Part shown: one piece after another, positions 7,211 through 61,696 of the stretch
Numbering within the stretch: position 1 is the stretch's first letter
Layout: each line of letters starts with the position of its first letter
NCBI GenBank assembly: GCA_964355175.1
Contig: CAYHBZ010000001.1
Span: 439,400-503,399 of the forward strand
Source of the DNA: an uncultured Gammaproteobacteria bacterium
Lineage (GTDB): Bacteria > Patescibacteriota > Patescibacteriia > Magasanikbacterales > GWA2-37-8
Reading direction: 5' to 3'
DNA: 64,000 nucleotides
The notes under the pieces: model-generated
The model's input: the letters and a program-made list of their open reading frames with translations, nothing else
Told to the model about the DNA's origin: nothing
The model's database searches: none
Made by a program: the position numbers and the translations under genes

Positions 7211-7302
7211 TGGCTCTGACTACAAAATTTATAATCAAAGTGTGGCGCGCCGGATCCTACTCCTTTTTAAGTTAGGGGGCGCGCGGGGTGGGAATGAAAT
7301 GC

Positions 7303-7644
7303 CTAGTGATGGGGCACCTCCTTCAGCTGCGGAGCGGCCAGTCGAGCCGTCTCGACTCGACGACGCCGGCTTGGATCGCGGACGTAGGCCGGAAGATGTT
7401 CTCCGGGACTGATCGAGCTGAACGCCGTCGGCAGTGGCTTGGGCTCGGTGTTGCGGCTGGTCGGCTGGCGCTGGCGCAAAGCAGCCCAGAACCAGGACAG
7501 CAGCTCCCCAGGTTCGGTGAACAACAGTCCGCCGACAATGGCTACCGTGCCGATCACAGGCAACAACGACTCAACGAAGTACGCCACGACGAGCAATGCC
7601 GCCGCGAGGTACTCCATGTAATCACGAAAGGTCCACTTTCGCAT
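7303..7644 (-). CDS. Small membrane protein in a GC-rich islet, two predicted TM helices plus Pro/Arg-rich tail
   Basis: 113-aa ORF with two hydrophobic helices (YLAAALLVVAYFVESLLPVI, GTVAIVGGLLF...SWFWAAL). GC is about 65% against a background of about 40%. The terminator lies downstream on the minus strand. Confidence 0.4.
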   Translation of the reverse strand: MRKWTFRDYMEYLAAALLVVAYFVESLLPVIGTVAIVGGLLFTEPGELLSWFWAALRQRQPTSRNTEPKPLPTAFSSISPGEHLPAYVRDPSRRRRVETARLAAPQLKEVPHH

Positions 7645-7750
7645 TTCTCCCCTTTGCCGGTAGGCAAGGCCGAATTTGGCCCTATACCGGACACAGCTTA
7701 ACTATCATAATTATAACAGAAAGTCAAGGGTAAAGATATAATTATTCAAT

Positions 7751-9685: not shown

Positions 9686-9801
9686 CGAAGTGTTGGACCA
9701 TTTTTCCCTCCCCACTTGGCCTAATGACCAAGACATCCTTACGGACGGAGCGATTTGAAATTGCTCTACCCACCATATTTTGGAAGATGGGTTCATGCGG
9801 T

Positions 9802-10311
9802 TTACAACTCGAAACCACAAGGAAAGAAGTCGGCCATGGTACCGATGACGATCTGGCCGTTATCCTGAAGACAGAGAAAACGGATATTTCCGCCACCATA
9901 CTGGCTGAGCAGGCCGCGACAATGTCCACACGGCGTGTATCGAACGTCCGAGAGACTGACGATCGGCACCATGGTGTATTGAGGCGGACTGACAATACGC
10001 TTACTGCTCGGTCCAAGAGCGATAGCAACGGTATCGCAGAGCGCCCTGGGACCAAGAGCGCCGATCATCGCGGCCAGCGTGGCCGCTTCGGCGTGAATGG
10101 TGCTCGTCTGAGCATGATCTTCTACATTACAGCCATAGAACATGCGATCAACCCCGACAGGACGCAACGCCGCTCCCACCATGAACTGCGACACCGGCAC
10201 ACTCGCATGCTCACGCGCACGAATGGCTCGAGCCAGAAGCACACGATCAGCTTCGGACATTTCATCCCAGACACACACCCGCACACTACCTGTAATCTCA
10301 ATCGTCCGCAT
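9802..10311 (-). CDS. cdd: Cytidine deaminase (CDA-fold zinc deaminase), GC-rich
   Basis: HAE and PCGHCRGLL zinc-binding motifs. About 62% GC, but an AT-rich upstream region with TTGCAT-16-TAGTAT and a GGGAG Shine-Dalgarno. Confidence 0.7.
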   Translation of the reverse strand: MRTIEITGSVRVCVWDEMSEADRVLLARAIRAREHASVPVSQFMVGAALRPVGVDRMFYGCNVEDHAQTSTIHAEAATLAAMIGALGPRALCDTVAIALGPSSKRIVSPPQYTMVPIVSLSDVRYTPCGHCRGLLSQYGGGNIRFLCLQDNGQIVIGTMADFFPCGFEL

Positions 10312-10445
10312 TGCTATACTCCCAACCAGCCAGTTGATTGCTGATTTGCGGGCATACTAACATATATTTTAAAAAATGCAATGATTATACATTGGACAAT
10401 AAAAATCATAATTGATAGAATATGGCTATATAAATTCTAAAAAAT

Positions 10446-10775
10446 ATGGCTAAACAATATTTTGAATTAAAAAAAGATCAATATCGAAAAAATCGTGGAG
10501 GTTATTCACGCTTTCTAAATATTTTTTGTGACAGTTGTAGCGCGCATTTGGCTCTATATCAAAAAGATGGTCCAGGTGAACTAAAAAGAATGTACCTCGA
10601 CAGAATTTTGGCGCCAAAAATTAAAAAAAATAAAACTATGGACTTCAAATGCTCCGCTTGTCAAAAAGTTGTCGGAACTTTCTATAATTATAAAAAAGAA
10701 GATCGACCGGCAATCCGTTTGTACCAAGGATCGGTAATAAAAAAAGTCGGAATTGGAATTTATCCTTTAAAATAA
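10446..10775 (+). CDS. Zn-ribbon protein (CxxC...CxxC), AT-rich paralog
   Basis: 109 aa. RGGYSRFLNIFCDSCSAHLALYQKDGPGELKRMYLDRI...CSACQ. About 50% identical to the GC-rich ORF at 13157-13522. A TTGGAC-18-TAGAAT promoter lies upstream. Confidence 0.55.
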   Translation: MAKQYFELKKDQYRKNRGGYSRFLNIFCDSCSAHLALYQKDGPGELKRMYLDRILAPKIKKNKTMDFKCSACQKVVGTFYNYKKEDRPAIRLYQGSVIKKVGIGIYPLK

Positions 10776-10787
10776 ATAGCGTAAAAA

Positions 10788-10822
10788 AACAATGCCTACT
10801 GAATTGGCATTGTTTTTTATTT
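10788..10822. terminator. Bidirectional terminator
   Basis: AACAATGCC-tactgaatt-GGCATTGTT with an A-run on one side and a T-run on the other. It ends both the plus Zn-ribbon gene and the minus GC-rich operon. Confidence 0.6.
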
Positions 10823-10922
10823 TAAAGACACAATACAAATATTATGTTCTTAATACGGGGTCTGCAGATGCGGCTACAGATTATCCCCTCCCTTTTCCTT
10901 TTGTGAAATGACCGCATTCAAA

Positions 10923-11486
10923 TTAGAACGACTGGATGTAGTTGGTGAAAATCGCTTGCGCGATTCGACTGATCTGACCCTCTTGCGAGACGATCTCATA
11001 GTCGTAATCACCGACATACCCCAAAGCCCAGAAACGCTCCAGCTCCTTTTGCGCGCTAGCGAAACGCGCACCGTCGGCATCCCGACCGTCTTTTCCCAAA
11101 CGCTGACGAAGCACGTCGAGCGAAGGCGGAGAAACGTAGATCGAGAACAGTTGACCAGGGAATGCCTGCTTCATGATCGACAGTCGATCGATCGGCCAGT
11201 CCAGCACCGGGAATTTCTCGGCGGACAGAGCCGCTTCAATCGGCAACCTCGGCGTCCCGTAAAGGATTCCGCCGAAGAGTTCGTTGACCACGAGCAGTTC
11301 GCCACGTTGCGACATTGCATCCATCTGGCTACGGCTCACCGAAACCTTATTCCTCTCTCCTTCCCGAAGCGGACGAGTCATGTAGGGACAGATGTAGACG
11401 AAGCGGTCGTCGAGTTTCGACAACTCGTCGATGACAGCACTCTTGCCCACGCCCGACGGACCCAGCAACAGCATGAACCTGCTCAT
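10923..11486 (-). CDS. Guanylate kinase-like NMP kinase, GC-rich
   Basis: P-loop LLLGPSGVGKS, Gmk-like TRPLREGE, and PPSLDVLRQRL / DYDYEIV segments. The start ATG overlaps the upstream stop (TGATG). AGGAGG lies 6 nt upstream. Confidence 0.6.
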   Translation of the reverse strand: MSRFMLLLGPSGVGKSAVIDELSKLDDRFVYICPYMTRPLREGERNKVSVSRSQMDAMSQRGELLVVNELFGGILYGTPRLPIEAALSAEKFPVLDWPIDRLSIMKQAFPGQLFSIYVSPPSLDVLRQRLGKDGRDADGARFASAQKELERFWALGYVGDYDYEIVSQEGQISRIAQAIFTNYIQSF

Positions 11487-12322
11487 CACTTCCTCCTTTC
11501 CAGGTTGAGAGCTTCTTTCGTCGTGACCGTAGCCATTTGAACGGCTGTTTGCCACGACTCAGAAGCGCCTGGATAGAGCAGGCCGCGAGAAGAGTTCACG
11601 AAGACGCCGAGACCTTCCGAGTTGAGCAGTTTGCCCAGATCCTGGTAGCTTCCACCTTGAGCACCGACACCGGCGAGCAGGATCGGCATGTTGTTCGGGA
11701 TGAGCGGGCGGATATTGTTCATATCCAACCCTGCCGTCGAGGACAACACGGGGATCATGTTACCGTTGCGATTCCAACGATTCACCACCAGGTCCAGCAT
11801 GTACTGCCAGAGCATGCGACCGTCATGGAGACGGACATCCTGAACAACACCGCCGGAGATGTTGCTCGTCTTGACGAGTACAACGACAGACTTGTCTTTG
11901 AGCTCCATGAGCGGTTCGATGACATCGTCCCCCATGTAGGGGTTCACGACGACACCGTCCGCCTGGATCTCTCCAAACAGGTTGTCGATGTAGGCCGCCA
12001 TAGTGTTCTCGATATCGCCGATCTTGCAATCGACAATCACGGGAACTCCCGGCAAAGTGCGATGGACGTAGTGGACGATCTCCTTGAGTACATCATGTCC
12101 ACCGGACATGAGATCGAAGAACGCCTTCTGCGCCTTGAACGCACAGACATGTGGACCAGTAGCATCCACGGCTCCCTGCAGAAACGCCAGAACCTTTTCT
12201 TCCTTGCTCCCGGGCTGTTCCAGCACTGCGCGCGGCAGTTTGGAAAAATCCGGATCAAGGCCGGCGCACAATAGAGTGCCCTGCTCGCGCATACGCGCGA
12301 AGAGTTGCTGATTCGCAATCAT
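11486..12322 (-). CDS. Orotidine-5'-phosphate decarboxylase-like (type 2 ODCase family), GC-rich second copy
   Basis: AGLDPD and VIVDCKIGDIENT preserve the DxKxxD catalytic motif. Paralogous to native pyrF at 41352-42170. AGGAGG SD. Confidence 0.65.
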   Translation of the reverse strand: MIANQQLFARMREQGTLLCAGLDPDFSKLPRAVLEQPGSKEEKVLAFLQGAVDATGPHVCAFKAQKAFFDLMSGGHDVLKEIVHYVHRTLPGVPVIVDCKIGDIENTMAAYIDNLFGEIQADGVVVNPYMGDDVIEPLMELKDKSVVVLVKTSNISGGVVQDVRLHDGRMLWQYMLDLVVNRWNRNGNMIPVLSSTAGLDMNNIRPLIPNNMPILLAGVGAQGGSYQDLGKLLNSEGLGVFVNSSRGLLYPGASESWQTAVQMATVTTKEALNLERRK

Positions 12323-13132
12323 TTACCCCTCCTGGATGTGAAGGCCTTGATGGTTGAGGTGTTGGCCCTTGGCGGCCAAATGGCGAGCGGTATGCTCGGT
12401 GGCCGGCACGATCACCGGCACGAGCTGGTCGCTAACCTTGTAGCCGTTTTCGCCAAAGACTGTAGCCTTGTAGGGGTTGTTGGTCGCCAGATCAATAGCA
12501 CACGAAGACGGCACCTCGAAGAATTTGAGGATGCAGACGACGCCGGAGTAGGTCCGGACATCGATGACGCCACCAGGTGCCAAGAGGCTGGCCGACTCGA
12601 CCGTGTTCACCTTGAGCTGTTCTTGAAGCCAGAGGGTAGCGAGCTTGAAGGTCAAGCCCATCCCCCGGCCATCTTGACGCGGGATGTTCACGATCATACC
12701 TTCCCCGACCTCGGCGAGCGTCTGCATAGCCAGCTTGAGTTGCTGACAGCATTCGCACGTCCGATCGCCGAAGACCTGGCCGGTTTCGCATCCCGAATCG
12801 GTACGCAAAACCAACCGTTCCTTCCGCTTGAAGACGGGGTTGAGGGTATTGAGGTCGATCTCGCCCCGAAGCAGCACGGAGTATTTCTCCCACTGGTCGT
12901 CGATGGCGAAATTGTACTGCCAAAACGACCCGAACTCGGTGTTGAGAACGCCGAGACCACGACGCTCCACGAAGTAGAAACGCCTGTCTCCAGCCTCCAC
13001 GACATCGATGCGCTTCTGCACCGGCTGCATAGAGCTCTGGACGAGAGCGATGAACTTCTCAACTTCCTGAGGGGACATGCCCGACTTGGCAATGATCTTG
13101 ATCATGTCGGGCGGGGGAACGCTGATAGCCAT
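12323..13132 (-). CDS. GTP cyclohydrolase II-like protein, GC-rich, with a non-canonical residue at the ring-opening Tyr position
   Basis: LRTDSGCETGQVFGDRTCECCQQL matches RVHSECLTGD..CDCGxQL (zinc Cys). NIPRQDGRGMGL matches YHRQEGRNIGL with Tyr replaced by Ile/Pro. LATNNPYK matches LLTNNPKK. AGGAGG SD. Confidence 0.65.
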   Translation of the reverse strand: MAISVPPPDMIKIIAKSGMSPQEVEKFIALVQSSMQPVQKRIDVVEAGDRRFYFVERRGLGVLNTEFGSFWQYNFAIDDQWEKYSVLLRGEIDLNTLNPVFKRKERLVLRTDSGCETGQVFGDRTCECCQQLKLAMQTLAEVGEGMIVNIPRQDGRGMGLTFKLATLWLQEQLKVNTVESASLLAPGGVIDVRTYSGVVCILKFFEVPSSCAIDLATNNPYKATVFGENGYKVSDQLVPVIVPATEHTARHLAAKGQHLNHQGLHIQEG

Positions 13133-13156
13133 GGCTATCCTCCTGATGCTTGATGG

Positions 13157-13522
13157 TTACAGATTGGTCGGCGGGTACATCCCGTCGCTCTTCTTCTTGC
13201 CGAAGGAGCCGGGCACCATACGGAAAGCCAGACGATTTTCCGGTTCGTACACCATGGGGGTGGCGATGAGCACATTGCACTGAGGGCAGAGCAGGTTGGG
13301 CAGCGCCTTCTTGTCGAGGGCCTTGCCCTTCAACTCGGCCAAAGTCGGCGGAGCGAAGATGCGATCGACATACATGCGCAAGAGCGCGCCAGGGCCGTCC
13401 TTTTGGTAAAGGGCGACATGGGCGTGGCAAGCGCAGCAGACGATGTTGAGGAAGCGAGAATCGCCTCCACGAGCCCGCGAGTAGCTGTCCCGCTTGGCCT
13501 GAAACTTGATTGGTTCGGTCAT
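13157..13522 (-). CDS. Zn-ribbon protein, GC-rich paralog, first gene of the operon
   Basis: 121 aa. RGGDSRFLNIVCCACHAHVALYQKDGPGALLRMYVDRI...CPQC. 24 nt upstream of the GCHII-like gene. Confidence 0.5.
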   Translation of the reverse strand: MTEPIKFQAKRDSYSRARGGDSRFLNIVCCACHAHVALYQKDGPGALLRMYVDRIFAPPTLAELKGKALDKKALPNLLCPQCNVLIATPMVYEPENRLAFRMVPGSFGKKKSDGMYPPTNL

Positions 13523-13648
13523 GGTTCCTCTGTTAGGTGAGAGTGGATGGTTGTTTGAGCTTTTGGTTAATCATTCATTATCAAAGAACCGGCCCTAGAC
13601 TACCACAATTTTTTGTTTTAAGCAAGGGTACGAGCTATTAATAAATTT

Positions 13649-57721: not shown

Positions 57722-58618
57722 CTATGCAAACGGCTGAATTTTAGAAACTAAATCTTCATAAGTATCCGCAATTAGCACACCCACAGATTTCAAAGCCGCT
57801 TCTTTTTCCGCCGCACTCTGTCCTCTACCAACAATTGCACCAGCGTGGCCAATATTCATACCCTCGGGAAATAGATTGGCAAATTTCCCACCAATATATA
57901 CAGCGAGCGGCTTAGTAAATTCTTTTTTATTTATCAAATCCACTATTTCAAATTCATATCCTCCACCATGTTCACCAAAAATTACTACGGCTTTGGTCTG
58001 TTCATCTTTTTCAAATAATTTTAATAGATCGGTATAGGTAGTACCCATAAGTAGGTCACCTCCCACATGTACCGCACTACTCTGACCAAGTCCGGCGCGA
58101 CGAATTTGCCAAGACAGCTCATTGGTCATACCACCCGAACGAGAAATTACACCAATACTGCCGGGCTGAAACACTTGGTCAGCCAAAGCTTTTGGACCAC
58201 CCACCACACCCACACGCGCTTGTCCTGGGCTAATATACCCCAGAGAGCTCGGACCAATAATGCGAATATTTTTTTCTTTGGCAGCAGCCAAACAATAGGC
58301 AGTGTCCTGAATTGGAATACGCTCTACAATGGTATTAATTATCGCTATATCATTTTGAATTGCTTCGAGAATTGCTTCTTTGGCCGCAAACGGCGGGACA
58401 TAGATTGTGGTGGTAGAAATATCCGGAAATGCGACCTTAGCTTCGGCCACCGAATTAAAAACCGGTACACCTTCCACCACTTCTCCACCTTTGCCTGGGC
58501 GCACACCGGCTACCACTTGGGTACCATATTCGCGCATCGCCGTGGCCGCTTTCTGACCTTCTTTGCCAGTGATGCCCTGCACCAACACTTTGGTATTTTT
58601 ATCTATTAGGATACTCAT
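57722..58618 (-). CDS. Succinyl-CoA synthetase alpha-like subunit (CoA-binding, phospho-His)
   Basis: VLVQGITGKEG and NIGHAGAIV phosphohistidine loop. Confidence 0.8.
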   Translation of the reverse strand: MSILIDKNTKVLVQGITGKEGQKAATAMREYGTQVVAGVRPGKGGEVVEGVPVFNSVAEAKVAFPDISTTTIYVPPFAAKEAILEAIQNDIAIINTIVERIPIQDTAYCLAAAKEKNIRIIGPSSLGYISPGQARVGVVGGPKALADQVFQPGSIGVISRSGGMTNELSWQIRRAGLGQSSAVHVGGDLLMGTTYTDLLKLFEKDEQTKAVVIFGEHGGGYEFEIVDLINKKEFTKPLAVYIGGKFANLFPEGMNIGHAGAIVGRGQSAAEKEAALKSVGVLIADTYEDLVSKIQPFA

Positions 58619-58619
58619 A

Positions 58620-59762
58620 TTATTTTAAAATCATTTCTGCCAAAACTTTGGCAGTTTCACCCATGGCGATTTCTTTACCAAAAATTTTCATATTCAAATT
58701 ATTGCGCTCTGCACATTCTTGCATCAATCTTTTCCCTTCAGCTTCATTTGGTCCGGCGCGGCGGATTACTATTGGATAAGACGGCTTTACTTCATCGAGC
58801 GCGTCAATAATTCCCTGAAAAGTAGCGGCGATATCCGTAAAATTGGCTACCCCACCGGCAATCCACAAACCTTTTAAACCTGGCTTGGATAAAACAATTT
58901 TAGCAAGCTGGGCCACTTTTTCGCGCGGTGGATTACCAGAGTATTCGGTATAGTTTGCTGGTTTCAAACCAGCTTTAATTAACTCATCCATATTGGCGAT
59001 ACTAGCCCCACCACCCGAAAACAATACCGCCACATCACCTTCCATCTCAATATATTTTCCAGCCGTACCACGATAATAGTTTTCACCTTCATCAATTTTT
59101 TTTACCTGCAATTCTCTATCGGTAGGCAAACGACCAAGCATGGTGCGTGGTTCAAATTCCCAATCTTTGTGACGATAAAAAGCATCTTCATCGATCGCGA
59201 TCTTAGAATCAGCCGCCACCCAACGACCGTCGTCAGTTTTTACCAACGGATTTATTTCCACTACACGCGCGTCGGTCTGCAAAAAACACCGCCACAGCTC
59301 ATCGGCATAAGGCACCGACAAACCGGTTTTTTCTTGGCGGATATCCAAATAATGTTTATTGATTTCGTTGTGCTCTACTTCTTCGATATCCATACCACCA
59401 CTTTCACTATAGATCAAAAGCGGTTGTTTTCTGTTTGTATCATAAGTGATAGACAAATAATGTTCTTCGGCAATGTTCAATTTTTCTTCCATAAAAACCG
59501 CGGCCACATATTGGCCGTTTAGATTGGAAGAAAAAATCTTCTCTGCTGCCGCTTTTGCTTCGTCAGCTGTAGAAGCAAATAAAATACCATTATTTTTGCC
59601 GCGTTTACCGGATAACACTTGGGCTTTGAGCACGACATCTTTTAGGCCAAATTGTTCATAGGCACTCACAACACCATCTTCGCGACGCAGCAAAACCGAC
59701 TTCGGTGTTTCGACACCAAATTTTGTAAAAATATTTTTTCCTTCAAATTCGTAGAGATTCAT
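58620..59762 (-). CDS. Succinyl-CoA synthetase beta-like ATP-grasp subunit
   Basis: MNLYEFEGKNIFTKFGV N-terminus. ATP-grasp plus ligase-CoA domains. Confidence 0.8.
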   Translation of the reverse strand: MNLYEFEGKNIFTKFGVETPKSVLLRREDGVVSAYEQFGLKDVVLKAQVLSGKRGKNNGILFASTADEAKAAAEKIFSSNLNGQYVAAVFMEEKLNIAEEHYLSITYDTNRKQPLLIYSESGGMDIEEVEHNEINKHYLDIRQEKTGLSVPYADELWRCFLQTDARVVEINPLVKTDDGRWVAADSKIAIDEDAFYRHKDWEFEPRTMLGRLPTDRELQVKKIDEGENYYRGTAGKYIEMEGDVAVLFSGGGASIANMDELIKAGLKPANYTEYSGNPPREKVAQLAKIVLSKPGLKGLWIAGGVANFTDIAATFQGIIDALDEVKPSYPIVIRRAGPNEAEGKRLMQECAERNNLNMKIFGKEIAMGETAKVLAEMILK

Positions 59763-59780: not shown

Positions 59781-60689
59781 TTATTTACTACTCCATCTAG
59801 CAAAAATACCACATGGCAACAAACGACCACTTTTACTTTCTTGCAAGGTTAATTCCCCTTTTTCTGTCTGACCGCCGTATTTTTTTAATAACATCTGCAA
59901 ATTATTTTCATAGGCGATTGCGGAGTATCCGGCAGCATAACCATTGATAAGAAAAAACAATGGAGTGTCAGATAAAATCTCACTGCACATATCCACCAGT
60001 CCCACAAAATCTTTTTCTACTTTCCACATTTCACCGTTTGGCCCATGTCCAAAAGCCGGTGGATCCATCAGAATACCATCGTATTTTTTACCGCGCTTTA
60101 CTTCGCGTTTTACAAATTCGACAGCGTCATCCAAAATCCAACGAATTGGTTTTTCTTTTAATCCAGACAATTCCGCATTGTCGCGTGCCCAACCAATTGC
60201 CACTTTGGATCCATCTACATGACACACCTGCGCTCCCGCTTGCGCGCAAGCCAGACTAGCACCACCAGTATATCCAAACAAATTCAAAACATGAATTTCT
60301 GGTTGTTTCGGCAAACGCTTTTTAATTACTTCGCGCATCCAATTCCAATTGCCTTCTTGCTCTGGAAAAAGCCCAGTGTGCTTGAAAGCCGTTGGACGAA
60401 TATTAAATTTCAATCCGCCAAAATTTATGGTCCATTTTTCTGGAGTACCAGGACGGATATCCCAATCCGCAGCGCGGCCATCACGAATAAACACAGCGTG
60501 GGCATTTCCCCAATCTTTATTAAGTGACAAATTTTTCTTCCAGAGCGCTTGAGGATCTGGGCGACGAAAAACCACTTTTCCATAGCGTTCCAATTTTTCC
60601 CCATCACCGCTATCGAGCAATTCGTAGTCGGCGCTAGGCAAAGTAGATAATATTGATAAAGTTTGCATGGACATAGAGTAGATTGACAT
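59781..60689 (-). CDS. Class I SAM-dependent RNA methyltransferase, RlmI-like
   Basis: LNLFGYTGGASL SAM motif. DPPAFGHG catalytic motif. Confidence 0.65.
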   Translation of the reverse strand: MSIYSMSMQTLSILSTLPSADYELLDSGDGEKLERYGKVVFRRPDPQALWKKNLSLNKDWGNAHAVFIRDGRAADWDIRPGTPEKWTINFGGLKFNIRPTAFKHTGLFPEQEGNWNWMREVIKKRLPKQPEIHVLNLFGYTGGASLACAQAGAQVCHVDGSKVAIGWARDNAELSGLKEKPIRWILDDAVEFVKREVKRGKKYDGILMDPPAFGHGPNGEMWKVEKDFVGLVDMCSEILSDTPLFFLINGYAAGYSAIAYENNLQMLLKKYGGQTEKGELTLQESKSGRLLPCGIFARWSSK

Positions 60690-60712
60690 TTTTAAATGAT
60701 TTATGATAGTAT
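60683..60712 (+). promoter_or_regulatory. Promoter of the candidate ncRNA
   Basis: TTGACA-18-TAGTAT. Confidence 0.4.
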
Positions 60713-60718
60713 AATATT

Positions 60719-60892
60719 AGTTGGAAAATTTATCTAGAGCGGTGCGAGGGATTCGGCCCGATGACCACCCAGCAACCCCCTAAACCGGGGTGCTAATTCC
60801 GACCCTATTTAGGGAAAGATTTGTCCGTTTTAAACGGAAACAGTTTGCTTGTAGTCTGTTATCTTTCTTTATTTAGATAACGGATTTTTTTG
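60719..60892 (+). ncRNA. Candidate structured ncRNA or riboswitch-like leader of about 170 nt, family not recognised
   Basis: Bounded by its own promoter and an intrinsic terminator (CTGTTATCT-ttctttattt-AGATAACGG plus T7). Internal hairpins CCCTA/TAGGG and TCCGTTT/AAACGGA. G/C-rich paired segments GGCCCGATGACCACCC...CCGGGGTGC. No ORF. Confidence 0.35.
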
Positions 60893-60990
60893 TTCTTTTC
60901 ATTGTGTTGAGTTATAGGACACACCTTTGCTTTCTTAAAAAATCAGAGGAGTGTTCTGTAGCTTCAACCGCTTATCCCGTGAGGTGCCCC

Positions 60991-61266
60991 ATGTCCCAGC
61001 CCATCTCCTTCTCCGACAGCCAAGTCACCGAGCTGGCCCGGCTGATCGTTCGCTTCATCAGCCAGAGCGAGCTCTCCACCTTCCAACGCGTGGTCAGCCG
61101 CGTCGAGTACGAGGCTCCCTGGTTTGTCTGGGTCGCTCTGGCCAATGACGGTACCGAACTGGGCCGCTCAGACGAGTTCCGCTTCGTGGCTGCCAACGTC
61201 CGGCCGGTCGTGACCGCCCAGACCGCCCGCGACATCATGAAAGGAATCGCTGATCACACGTCGTGA
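60991..61266 (+). CDS. GC-rich hypothetical protein of 91 aa
   Basis: ATG preceded by GAGGTG. About 62% GC in an AT-rich context. No family recognised. Confidence 0.4.
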   Translation: MSQPISFSDSQVTELARLIVRFISQSELSTFQRVVSRVEYEAPWFVWVALANDGTELGRSDEFRFVAANVRPVVTAQTARDIMKGIADHTS

Positions 61267-61289
61267 TCGCAAGTGGCCTCCGGGAACCG

Positions 61290-61328
61290 GCCGGCGTCGC
61301 ATTCATTGCGCGCCGGCCGGACACTCCC
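61290..61328 (+). repeat. GC-rich 14-bp inverted repeat
   Basis: CCGGCCGGCGTCGCA-ttcat-TGCGCGCCGGCCGG directly after the 91-aa ORF. Confidence 0.5.
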
Positions 61329-61338
61329 ACCTATCGCC

Positions 61339-61366
61339 CCCTCGCATAATTGAGGGTTTTTTATTT
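61339..61366 (+). terminator. Terminator
   Basis: CCCTC-gcataatt-GAGGG followed by TTTTTT. Confidence 0.55.
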
Positions 61367-61696
61367 TTAAAGATCCATTCTAAATTCCAATCCATAATCT
61401 TCAAACCCTAATTTTTTATACCACACATGCACATTTTCTCTGCTTTTCCGACTAGTACCAATTAATTTATAACACCCTCTTTTTTTTGCTTCTTCTATAG
61501 CGGATTTTAAAAGATCATTTCCAAATCCTTGTCCGCGTGCCGTTTCATTCACAAATACATCTTCGAGCAATCCGTACGGCTCTTGATGCAGGTCGTTATA
61601 TACCAAATACAGCCAAGCTCGTCCAAGCTCCACACCGTTTTCCTCTACTGATATTTTTATTCCCAAAGTTTGTTTTTCAGTTTTTTTAATATTCAT
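61367..61696 (-). CDS. GNAT family N-acetyltransferase
   Basis: Acetyl-CoA motif RGQGFGNDLLKSAIEEAKKRG. Confidence 0.7.
   Translation of the reverse strand: MNIKKTEKQTLGIKISVEENGVELGRAWLYLVYNDLHQEPYGLLEDVFVNETARGQGFGNDLLKSAIEEAKKRGCYKLIGTSRKSRENVHVWYKKLGFEDYGLEFRMDL

Follow-up and report, generated by a model that had tools for sequence, protein, structure and literature searches.

A predicted SAM-I riboswitch upstream of a clade-restricted, fast-evolving small-protein gene in Candidatus Magasanikbacteria

Within a co-directional string of minus-strand genes in a Patescibacteria genome lies an antisense cassette composed of a promoter, a structured RNA and an open reading frame (ORF) for a small protein, which raises the question what kind of RNA this is and whether it controls the gene behind it. 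The cassette is located on contig CAYHBZ010000001.1 of assembly GCA_964355175.1, of which a stretch of 64,000 nucleotides (nt; positions 439,400–503,399, forward strand), here called the window and used for all numbering, was analysed. The lineage is Patescibacteriota; Patescibacteriia; Magasanikbacterales; GWA2-37-8, and the host was read as Candidatus Magasanikbacteria of the candidate phyla radiation (CPR/Patescibacteria). An initial annotation had marked a TTGACA-18-TAGTAT promoter, the structured RNA with G/C-rich paired segments, a terminator with a 9-bp stem and T7, a GAGGTG Shine-Dalgarno (SD) sequence, a GC-rich ORF of 91 amino acids (aa), a 14-bp GC inverted repeat and a second terminator, all of which are present (Table 1). 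It offered two interpretations: a novel small RNA (sRNA) gene, or a riboswitch with a terminator expression platform that controls a horizontally acquired small protein.

The RNA belongs to a known riboswitch class. A scan with Rfam 15 matched the leader to the SAM-I (S-box) family RF00162 over the full length of the model (positions 1–108), with a score of 57.2 bits versus a gathering score of 44.4. The E-value was 1.4e-10 for the scan of the whole 64-kb window, and a value of 1.9e-12 was also given for the aptamer match. A comparative search recovered the same riboswitch in the related loci L003–L011, L090 and L091 at 48.9–59.7 bits. In the covariance-model alignment the core strings AUC.AGAG, GAGGGA, GGCCC.AUGA, GCAACC, GGUGCUAAUUCC and GAAAGAU agree with the consensus, and the G/C-rich paired segments quoted in the initial annotation correspond to the aptamer helices P2 and P3. 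Across nine loci, 98–100% of the cells in P2, P3 and P4 are paired, including one compensatory change from U-A to C-G in P2. The pseudoknot between the P2 loop and J3-4 (UCGG 60753–56 with CCGA 60799–802) is found in eight of these loci; in the ninth, L004, the outer U-A pair is gone on both sides together. By its sequence class the leader is a canonical SAM-I riboswitch, which would be expected to bind S-adenosylmethionine (SAM) according to the established design of the family. The statement that the RNA resembles no common riboswitch consensus was wrong, and the novel sRNA gene, which the initial annotation itself had considered incompatible with a match to a known RNA family, has to be dropped, the RNA being textbook.

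The leader contains the arms of two mutually exclusive helices. The intrinsic terminator folds with −12.3 kcal/mol (z = −5.2 versus shuffled controls) and was also recovered in an inverted-repeat search; the consensus scan skipped it, presumably since that scan allows loops of at most 8 nt and the terminator has one of 10 nt. The minimum-free-energy (MFE) fold of the ligand-free leader (60720–60895) displays an antiterminator formed by AGGGAAAGAU and AUCUUUCUUU, and the same two arms were independently recovered by the inverted-repeat search. AGGGAAAGAU comprises the 3′ sides of P4 and P1, while AUCUUUCUUU overlaps the 5′ arm of the terminator. The antiterminator is 100% paired in nine of nine loci and the terminator 98.8% paired across loci, with an invariant 5′ arm and a 3′ arm that varies via G-U changes. 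This pattern fits the expectation for a 5′ arm that must pair in two alternative helices.

These elements are read as a SAM-I transcriptional OFF switch with a terminator, followed by a second stem-loop and a small protein made under SAM limitation, a reading to which a probability of roughly 0.8 is assigned. According to the OFF logic suggested by the overlapping helices, the aptamer would close when SAM is abundant, with P1 and P4 holding AGGGAAAGAU. The 9-bp/U7 terminator could then form and transcription would end at about 60891, releasing an RNA of about 170 nt. Under SAM shortage, AGGGAAAGAU would pair with AUCUUUCUUU and the terminator could not form, since its 5′ arm overlaps the paired AUCUUUCUUU. 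RNA polymerase would then read through the second stem-loop (hairpin 2) into the 91-aa ORF, and the message would be ended by a very stable GC hairpin plus the final terminator. A small soluble α/β protein would thereby be produced only under SAM limitation. Positions 60683–61362 form a single transcription unit on the plus strand, and the consensus scan revealed no promoter-like site between the riboswitch terminator and the ORF. Regarding the mechanism, the riboswitch interpretation of the initial annotation is borne out by the RF00162 match and the terminator/antiterminator pair.

Table 1. Elements of the riboswitch and small-protein transcription unit (positions in the window).
Feature	Position	Strand	Basis	Details
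Promoter, sigma-70-type, TG-extended	60683-60712	+	consensus scan	TTGACA 60683-60688, 18-nt spacer, TAGTAT 60707-60712; TG just upstream
Structured leader RNA	~60720-60891	+		about 172 nt, from likely start to end of T-run
SAM-I (S-box) aptamer	60727-60825	+	Rfam RF00162	helices P1-P4
P2	60739-60770	+		aptamer helix
P3	60771-60794	+		aptamer helix
P4	60798-60817	+		aptamer helix
Antiterminator	within 60811-60870	+	MFE fold	AGGGAAAGAU 60811-60820 / AUCUUUCUUU 60861-60870
Intrinsic terminator of the riboswitch	60856-60891	+		9-bp stem 60856-60864 / 60875-60883, 10-nt loop, U7 60885-60891
Hairpin 2	60910-60963	+		long stem-loop between terminator and ribosome binding site; core 60915-60929 / 60944-60958
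Shine-Dalgarno sequence	60981-60986	+		GAGGTG, 4 nt 5′ of ATG
Small-protein gene	60991-61266	+		91 aa, 63% GC, GC content at third codon positions (GC3) 0.83
GC-rich hairpin in the 3′ untranslated region	61282-61328	+		14-bp inner stem with one bulge (61287-61301 / 61307-61320) plus 4-bp outer stem, no U-tract
Final intrinsic terminator	61339-61362	+	consensus scan, folding	CCCTCG...TGAGGG, stem 61339-61356 plus T-run

Hairpin 2 has a folding energy of −23.8 kcal/mol (z = −5.3 versus shuffled controls). Across 12 loci 96.7% of its cells are paired, with compensatory double changes at 11 of the 15 pairs; none of 500 shuffles was as good, and slid registers give only 33–45% pairing. Since it matches no Rfam family, hairpin 2 represents a small covariation-supported RNA element that is new to Rfam. 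It is retained in the two loci that lack the aptamer (L012 and L019), and it may play a role in stabilisation or processing of the mRNA. In ten of the 12 loci, the window and L011 being the exceptions, the loop displays an SD-like AAGGAG or AAGGAA (e.g. L003 855–864, L004 7425–7433), which could be a docking site for the ribosome or a protein, or a coincidence. A leader peptide starting at an ATG or GTG in hairpin 2 was considered and rejected: these bases covary with their pairing partners (CCAYRT/AYRTGG), in L019 a TAG comes directly after the ATG, and L011 lacks a start at this place.

A purine-rich SD-like element is positioned at about equal distance in all 12 loci, and in the MFE folds it is left open outside hairpin 2. 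Masking of the SD sequence by a further hairpin (hairpin 3, GGTCGG/CCGACC) was likewise rejected, as this hairpin, invariant among the loci, is absent from the MFE folds. On the other side of the ORF, the GC-rich hairpin folds with −36.2 kcal/mol (z = −6.8) and was found by the inverted-repeat search, too. All related loci compared have a hairpin of like shape, though of another sequence, behind the ORF; it is evident in L003 and L004, and compensatory changes are apparent between L090 and L019. The two hairpins flanking the ORF most likely stabilise the read-through mRNA. The final terminator (−8.3 kcal/mol, z = −2.1) abuts the stop codon of a convergent acetyltransferase gene at 61367.

The ORF is a real coding gene under constraint, as indicated by the periodicity of its GC content, a ratio of non-synonymous to synonymous rates (dN/dS) below 1, an intact frame with an SD-like element, and a confidently predicted fold. 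Within the 40.6% GC window the ORF region stands out as a sharp 400-nt island of 62–67% GC. In frame, the GC content at the three codon positions is 0.61, 0.46 and 0.83, compared with a GC3 of 0.23–0.47 in host genes. The maximum at position 3 and the minimum at position 2 recur in the ORF frame of every cassette analysed, GC3 ranging from 0.64 to 0.83 in genomes of roughly 40% GC. Of the 12 loci, 11 have an intact frame with an SD-like element before it. In L008 the small ORF (473–812) looks frameshifted, its C-terminal half (…NGFRWAAVVKGG…SGKFKEGDIVPFMS) continuing in another frame, owing either to a sequencing error or to pseudogene formation. Over all pairs, dN/dS (Nei-Gojobori) amounts to 0.23–0.93 in the small ORF and 0.00–0.18 in the flanking genes. 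Sequence identity is 23–55% in most pairs of the family and 71% in the closest one. Between L090 and L091, dN reaches 0.43 in the small ORF and 0.015–0.022 in the flanking genes, corresponding to a non-synonymous rate 20–30 times that of the neighbours.

An AlphaFold2 model of the small protein, based on eight sequences, reached a predicted local distance difference test score (pLDDT) of 78.4 and a predicted template modelling score of 0.69. The predicted fold consists of a helix (residues 10–22), a three- to four-stranded antiparallel sheet (28–39, 42–51, 56–59 and 73–75) and a second helix (76–89), and the model of a divergent subfamily (P0015, pLDDT 71.7) keeps the core of one helix plus a three-stranded sheet. 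Family members comprise 76–114 aa with isoelectric points of 5.2–9.5, and only Met1, Trp47 and Phe63 are invariant. The lack of conserved polar residues, in combination with a quickly evolving surface and no more than one invariant Trp and Phe, suggests a binding or modulator protein rather than an enzyme.

Relatives were sought among about 15 billion proteins. In a word-indexed search of 5.8 billion clusters the protein itself was the sole match, while an exhaustive phmmer search of 1.84 billion representatives yielded two true relatives, P0007 and P0008 (E ~3e-9, 42–47% identity), and a profile search added P0012–P0016. Three further phmmer matches, P0009–P0011, are giant proteins and were rejected, the similarity being compositional and confined to 'VVANVAPVVTA'-type repeat junctions. 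Searches of viral contigs revealed no viral relative.

All family members found occupy the same locus, directly 3′ of a SAM-I leader or its remnant, and are confined to one clade of Candidatus Magasanikbacteria. The architecture is repeated in at least 11 independent related loci, two of which (L008 and L009) came from a motif scan of metagenomes; together with the Rfam E-value, this recurrence places the features far outside what chance would produce. A scan of 185,579 species genomes anchored on the neighbouring methyltransferase gene yielded 80 syntenic loci, most of them under the label of Candidatus Magasanikbacteria or other Patescibacteria. Among these, the full cassette is present in L010 and L011. 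L012 displays a terminator-like hairpin, hairpin 2 and the ORF but no aptamer, and in L019 the promoter is fused directly to hairpin 2, followed by the ORF and nothing else. In the other 76 loci no trace of the cassette can be detected upstream of the methyltransferase gene, and direct reading of L013–L017 and L020 confirmed that this gene adjoins the acetyltransferase gene. In a neighbour-joining tree of the methyltransferase, the carriers form one clade with L004 at its base. The full-cassette loci in the tree (the window, L010, L011, L090 and L091) have as their sister group the aptamer-less L012 and L019 together with the empty loci L013–L016. This distribution is most simply explained by a single gain followed by vertical inheritance, with decay later on in one of the branches. 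L012 and L019 represent natural deletion variants in which the ORF has escaped SAM control; an aptamer without the ORF was never found in the data set. Many loci with a Magasanikbacteria-like methyltransferase, GNAT and CofD (L013, L017–L019, L021 and others) are titled 'uncultured Gammaproteobacteria bacterium', 'Candidatus Saccharibacteria' or 'Chthoniobacteraceae', and these titles of Magasanikbacteria-like records of metagenome-assembled genomes are probably taxonomic mislabels.

The rival explanation that survives best, although improbable, is a recent import, i.e. a foreign or mobile cassette from a high-GC donor or phage whose GC content is not yet ameliorated and whose variability reflects cassette swapping. 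Its composition does look foreign, GC3 of 0.83 being far outside the range of the host genes, and this part of the initial annotation's horizontal acquisition stands. The cassette is moreover present or absent among close relatives, other GC-rich islands occur in the window, and in the closest pairs the synonymous divergence of the ORF is 1.3–3 times that of the flanks, with dS values of 1.58 versus 1.0–1.5 between the window and L010, and 0.87 versus 0.26–0.49 between L090 and L091. Identity between the window and L010 is about 88% in the flanks and about 95% in the riboswitch, falls sharply to near random at about 60895 and recovers at about 61375. By itself, however, this drop does not prove allelic replacement, because dS in the flanks of the same pair is already about 1. 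The recency of the acquisition, on the other hand, is contradicted by vertical descent: the methyltransferase tree unites the carriers in one clade, in which a single sub-branch shows losses, and no homolog beyond the locus was found among the 5.8 billion clusters, the 1.84 billion representatives or the viral contigs. A single locus, a single clade and the lack of viral or other-context homologs do not fit a mobile cassette, and neither integrase or transposase genes nor target duplications were found. Repeats resembling GGTCGGAC and bracketing the ORF were considered as recombination sites and rejected, as the window lacks the motif, the family keeps to a single locus with monophyletic carriers, and the viral matches of the motif are chance occurrences in GC-rich coding DNA. 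Finally, the high GC3 of 0.64–0.83 persists across the clade in lineages in which synonymous sites are saturated, which argues that the high GC content is maintained, by selection or local bias, and does not represent residual foreign DNA. One ancient transfer into the ancestor of the clade is conceivable, yet it would not account for the present composition. The combination of fast non-synonymous change with a GC3 retained after synonymous saturation calls for an explanation other than horizontal transfer.

It is very unlikely that the riboswitch, though real, mainly acts in trans as a SAM-terminated regulatory sRNA, with the ORF being incidental. Conservation is much stronger in the leader than in the ORF: the mean column identity of the leader alignment is 93% over nine loci, and between the window and L010 the leader is about 95% identical while dS in the flanking genes is about 1–1.5. 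This conservation reaches linker sequences such as TTGCTTGTAGTCTGTTATCTTTC. However, the double pairing duty in terminator and antiterminator explains the linker conservation, and the ORF is under purifying selection and kept even where the aptamer is lost. No target is known for a role in trans, and no search for targets was made.

There is similarly little probability that the GC-rich segment 60960–61330 is a structured non-coding RNA (ncRNA), as GC-rich islands often are in AT-rich genomes, and that the ORF exists only because GC-rich sequence contains few stop codons. In favour of this view, the segment is a GC island in a 40.6% GC window, long ORFs are present on its antisense strand too, and the MFE per nucleotide is about double the value for host genes. 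Against this view stand the codon-position pattern of all cassettes analysed, the conserved ATG and SD-like element, dN/dS below 1 with a conserved Trp47/Phe63 core, the confident AlphaFold2 models and the lack of an Rfam match in the segment. When the ORFs were compared with synonymous-codon shuffles, three of 11 showed z-scores near −3, but eight of 11 were without excess structure (z = −1.4 to +0.6, mostly between −0.2 and −1.4), and a specific RNA fold inside the ORF was accordingly rejected.

A stand-alone novel sRNA gene, with the terminated transcript of about 170 nt as its product, has next to no probability left: strong promoter and terminator do delimit a discrete unit, but the full-model match to RF00162 exceeds the gathering score, and the same ORF family always follows in cis.

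Several observations weigh against the preferred reading of a SAM-I OFF switch controlling the small protein. In P1, which closes the junction and serves as the ligand-stabilised switching helix, only 54% of the cells are paired in the Rfam register, several non-canonical positions are flagged in the covariance-model alignment, and only three Watson-Crick pairs (C-G, U-A, A-U) plus one U-G pair are conserved; P1 is short in this lineage but present. Covariation neither supports nor tests the antiterminator and most of the aptamer helices, which do not vary. All data stem from uncultured metagenome-assembled genomes, and the SAM response is a prediction from their sequences. Unlike genes of the usual S-box regulon, the downstream gene shows no tie to methionine, cysteine or SAM metabolism, an association that is typical of the class without defining it. 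As the initial annotation had stated, the gene belongs to no recognisable family: the window ORF plus eight relatives gave no Pfam, NCBIfam, PADLOC, PHROGs or PDB sequence match, and fold searches, BFVD included, gave no significant structural neighbour. Retention of the ORF without the aptamer in L012 and L019 further implies that SAM control is dispensable in some lineages.

In an unlikely but conceivable scenario, low SAM, as a sign of a phage enzyme that degrades SAM or of detachment from the host cell, de-represses the riboswitch and thereby releases the small protein, a fast-evolving inhibitor- or toxin-like effector of SAM starvation in genetic conflict. Selection would keep its message GC-rich, e.g. 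to stabilise it or to evade AU-directed RNases or Rho. If this were true, CPR bacteria would have their first riboswitch-gated effector of conflict or stress, and the gene would exemplify a coding sequence whose composition is maintained by selection. Independent of this scenario, the ligand of a riboswitch gives a good indication of what a gene without assigned role does, and the leader places the orphan family in the SAM-limitation physiology of a reduced-genome organism. Riboswitches have been proposed as candidates for the control of gene expression in the largely uncultivated Patescibacteria (PMC11665869). A literature search yielded no paper linking SAM riboswitches with Patescibacteria, for which the locus provides a clear natural example of the SAM-I class.

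The gene order around the cassette is a PF10672 methyltransferase gene (−), the SAM-I riboswitch (+), the small ORF (+), a GNAT acetyltransferase gene (−) and CofD/YvcK (−). Both direct neighbours, the divergent SAM-dependent RNA-methyltransferase-like gene and the convergent GNAT gene, lie outside the transcription unit of the riboswitch. The cassette is 100% identical across both junctions in contigs of two other assemblies (ENA ERZ4201065 and Logan SRR24858483), which rules out an assembly chimera. The short contigs L001 and L002, independent of each other and obtained from other samples, stop within 11 nt of each other at window positions 61384–61395, just past the final terminator of the cassette. 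This shared end could be due to chance at low coverage or to strain variation at the junction between cassette and GNAT gene that made the assembly graph branch.

The arrangement TTGACA...TAGTATAAT of the promoter is kept in L008, L009, L010, L090 and L091. Its −35 hexamer overlaps the start of the divergent methyltransferase ORF if this ORF is read at its longest (60689); alignment with relatives suggests Met6 or Met8 (60674 or 60668) as the true start. A promoter-like site for the methyltransferase gene on the minus strand (TAGATA-17-TATACT, 60708–60736) is situated within the DNA encoding the 5′ end of the leader, and two divergent promoters therefore overlap back to back. ATP-citrate-lyase-like or citryl-CoA-synthetase-like genes adjoin the methyltransferase gene (window 57722–59762; L004 3542–6315). 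They encode an ATP-grasp plus citrate-binding protein and a CoA-binding/ligase protein, and a short gene of the citrate synthase family comes next in relatives. Such an ATP-citrate-lyase-like module represents an unexpected carbon metabolism for a CPR genome.

Elsewhere in the window, a second GC-rich island (7226–7701, up to 68% GC) contains an orphan 113-aa ORF on the minus strand (7303–7644). Its product, hydrophobic in the N-terminal half, matches no Pfam family, and the ORF, which is bracketed by AT-rich terminator-like sequences, may be another GC-rich orphan small gene of this genome. A block of 56–62% GC at 9800–13600 (GC3 up to 0.76) carries minus-strand genes of nucleotide metabolism, resembling cytidine/dCMP deaminase (9802–10311), guanylate kinase (10923–11555), OMP decarboxylase (11486–12322) and GTP cyclohydrolase II (12323–13132), and looks like a foreign, higher-GC gene block. 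A 121-aa ORF at 13157–13522 (−) resembles an AT-rich ORF at 10446–10775 (+), with which it has the motif ...SRFLNI.C..C.AH.ALYQKDGPG... in common; neither has a Pfam match.

Comparison with known systems shows where the locus departs from precedent: the RNA belongs to a known class, and the unusual part is the regulated gene, an orphan that is clade-restricted, locus-bound and fast-evolving. Well-known SAM-I/S-box examples are the yitJ, metE and metK leaders of Bacillus subtilis and the metF aptamer of Thermoanaerobacter tengcongensis. With this family (RF00162) the window leader shares the four-way junction (P2–P4 well paired, P1 short and weak), the core strings, the pseudoknot, and a terminator/antiterminator arrangement that would be expected to switch expression OFF at high SAM. 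In contrast to the usual S-box, it controls a single orphan protein of 76–114 aa instead of genes for biosynthesis or transport of methionine, cysteine or SAM; its host is a CPR bacterium; the conserved part of P1 is limited to the four pairs described above; and an additional covarying stem-loop is inserted between terminator and ribosome binding site.

The SAM riboswitch transcripts SreA and SreB of Listeria reportedly act in trans as regulatory sRNAs (Loh et al. 2009). The window leader resembles them in its strong promoter and in the SAM-dependent termination that would be expected to yield a discrete RNA of about 170 nt. In the window leader, however, the cis arrangement with the ORF is conserved, and a role in trans is without supporting evidence. 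GC-rich intergenic islands are said to have been used for finding structured ncRNAs in AT-rich genomes in the approach of Klein/Eddy and the Breaker lab. The sharp 400-nt island of the window is of this type, but differs in its codon-position periodicity, its conservation at the protein level and the lack of a consistent RNA structure beyond composition. The small protein itself is most reminiscent of ORFan or fast-evolving accessory genes such as those of small phage or immunity inhibitor proteins, with which it shares small size, absence of homologs outside the clade, high dN/dS, patchy retention and loss, and invariance of hydrophobic core residues only. It differs from them in being fixed at one chromosomal locus, vertically inherited, riboswitch-controlled according to the reading preferred here, and anomalous in GC content, and it has no PADLOC, PHROGs or BFVD match.

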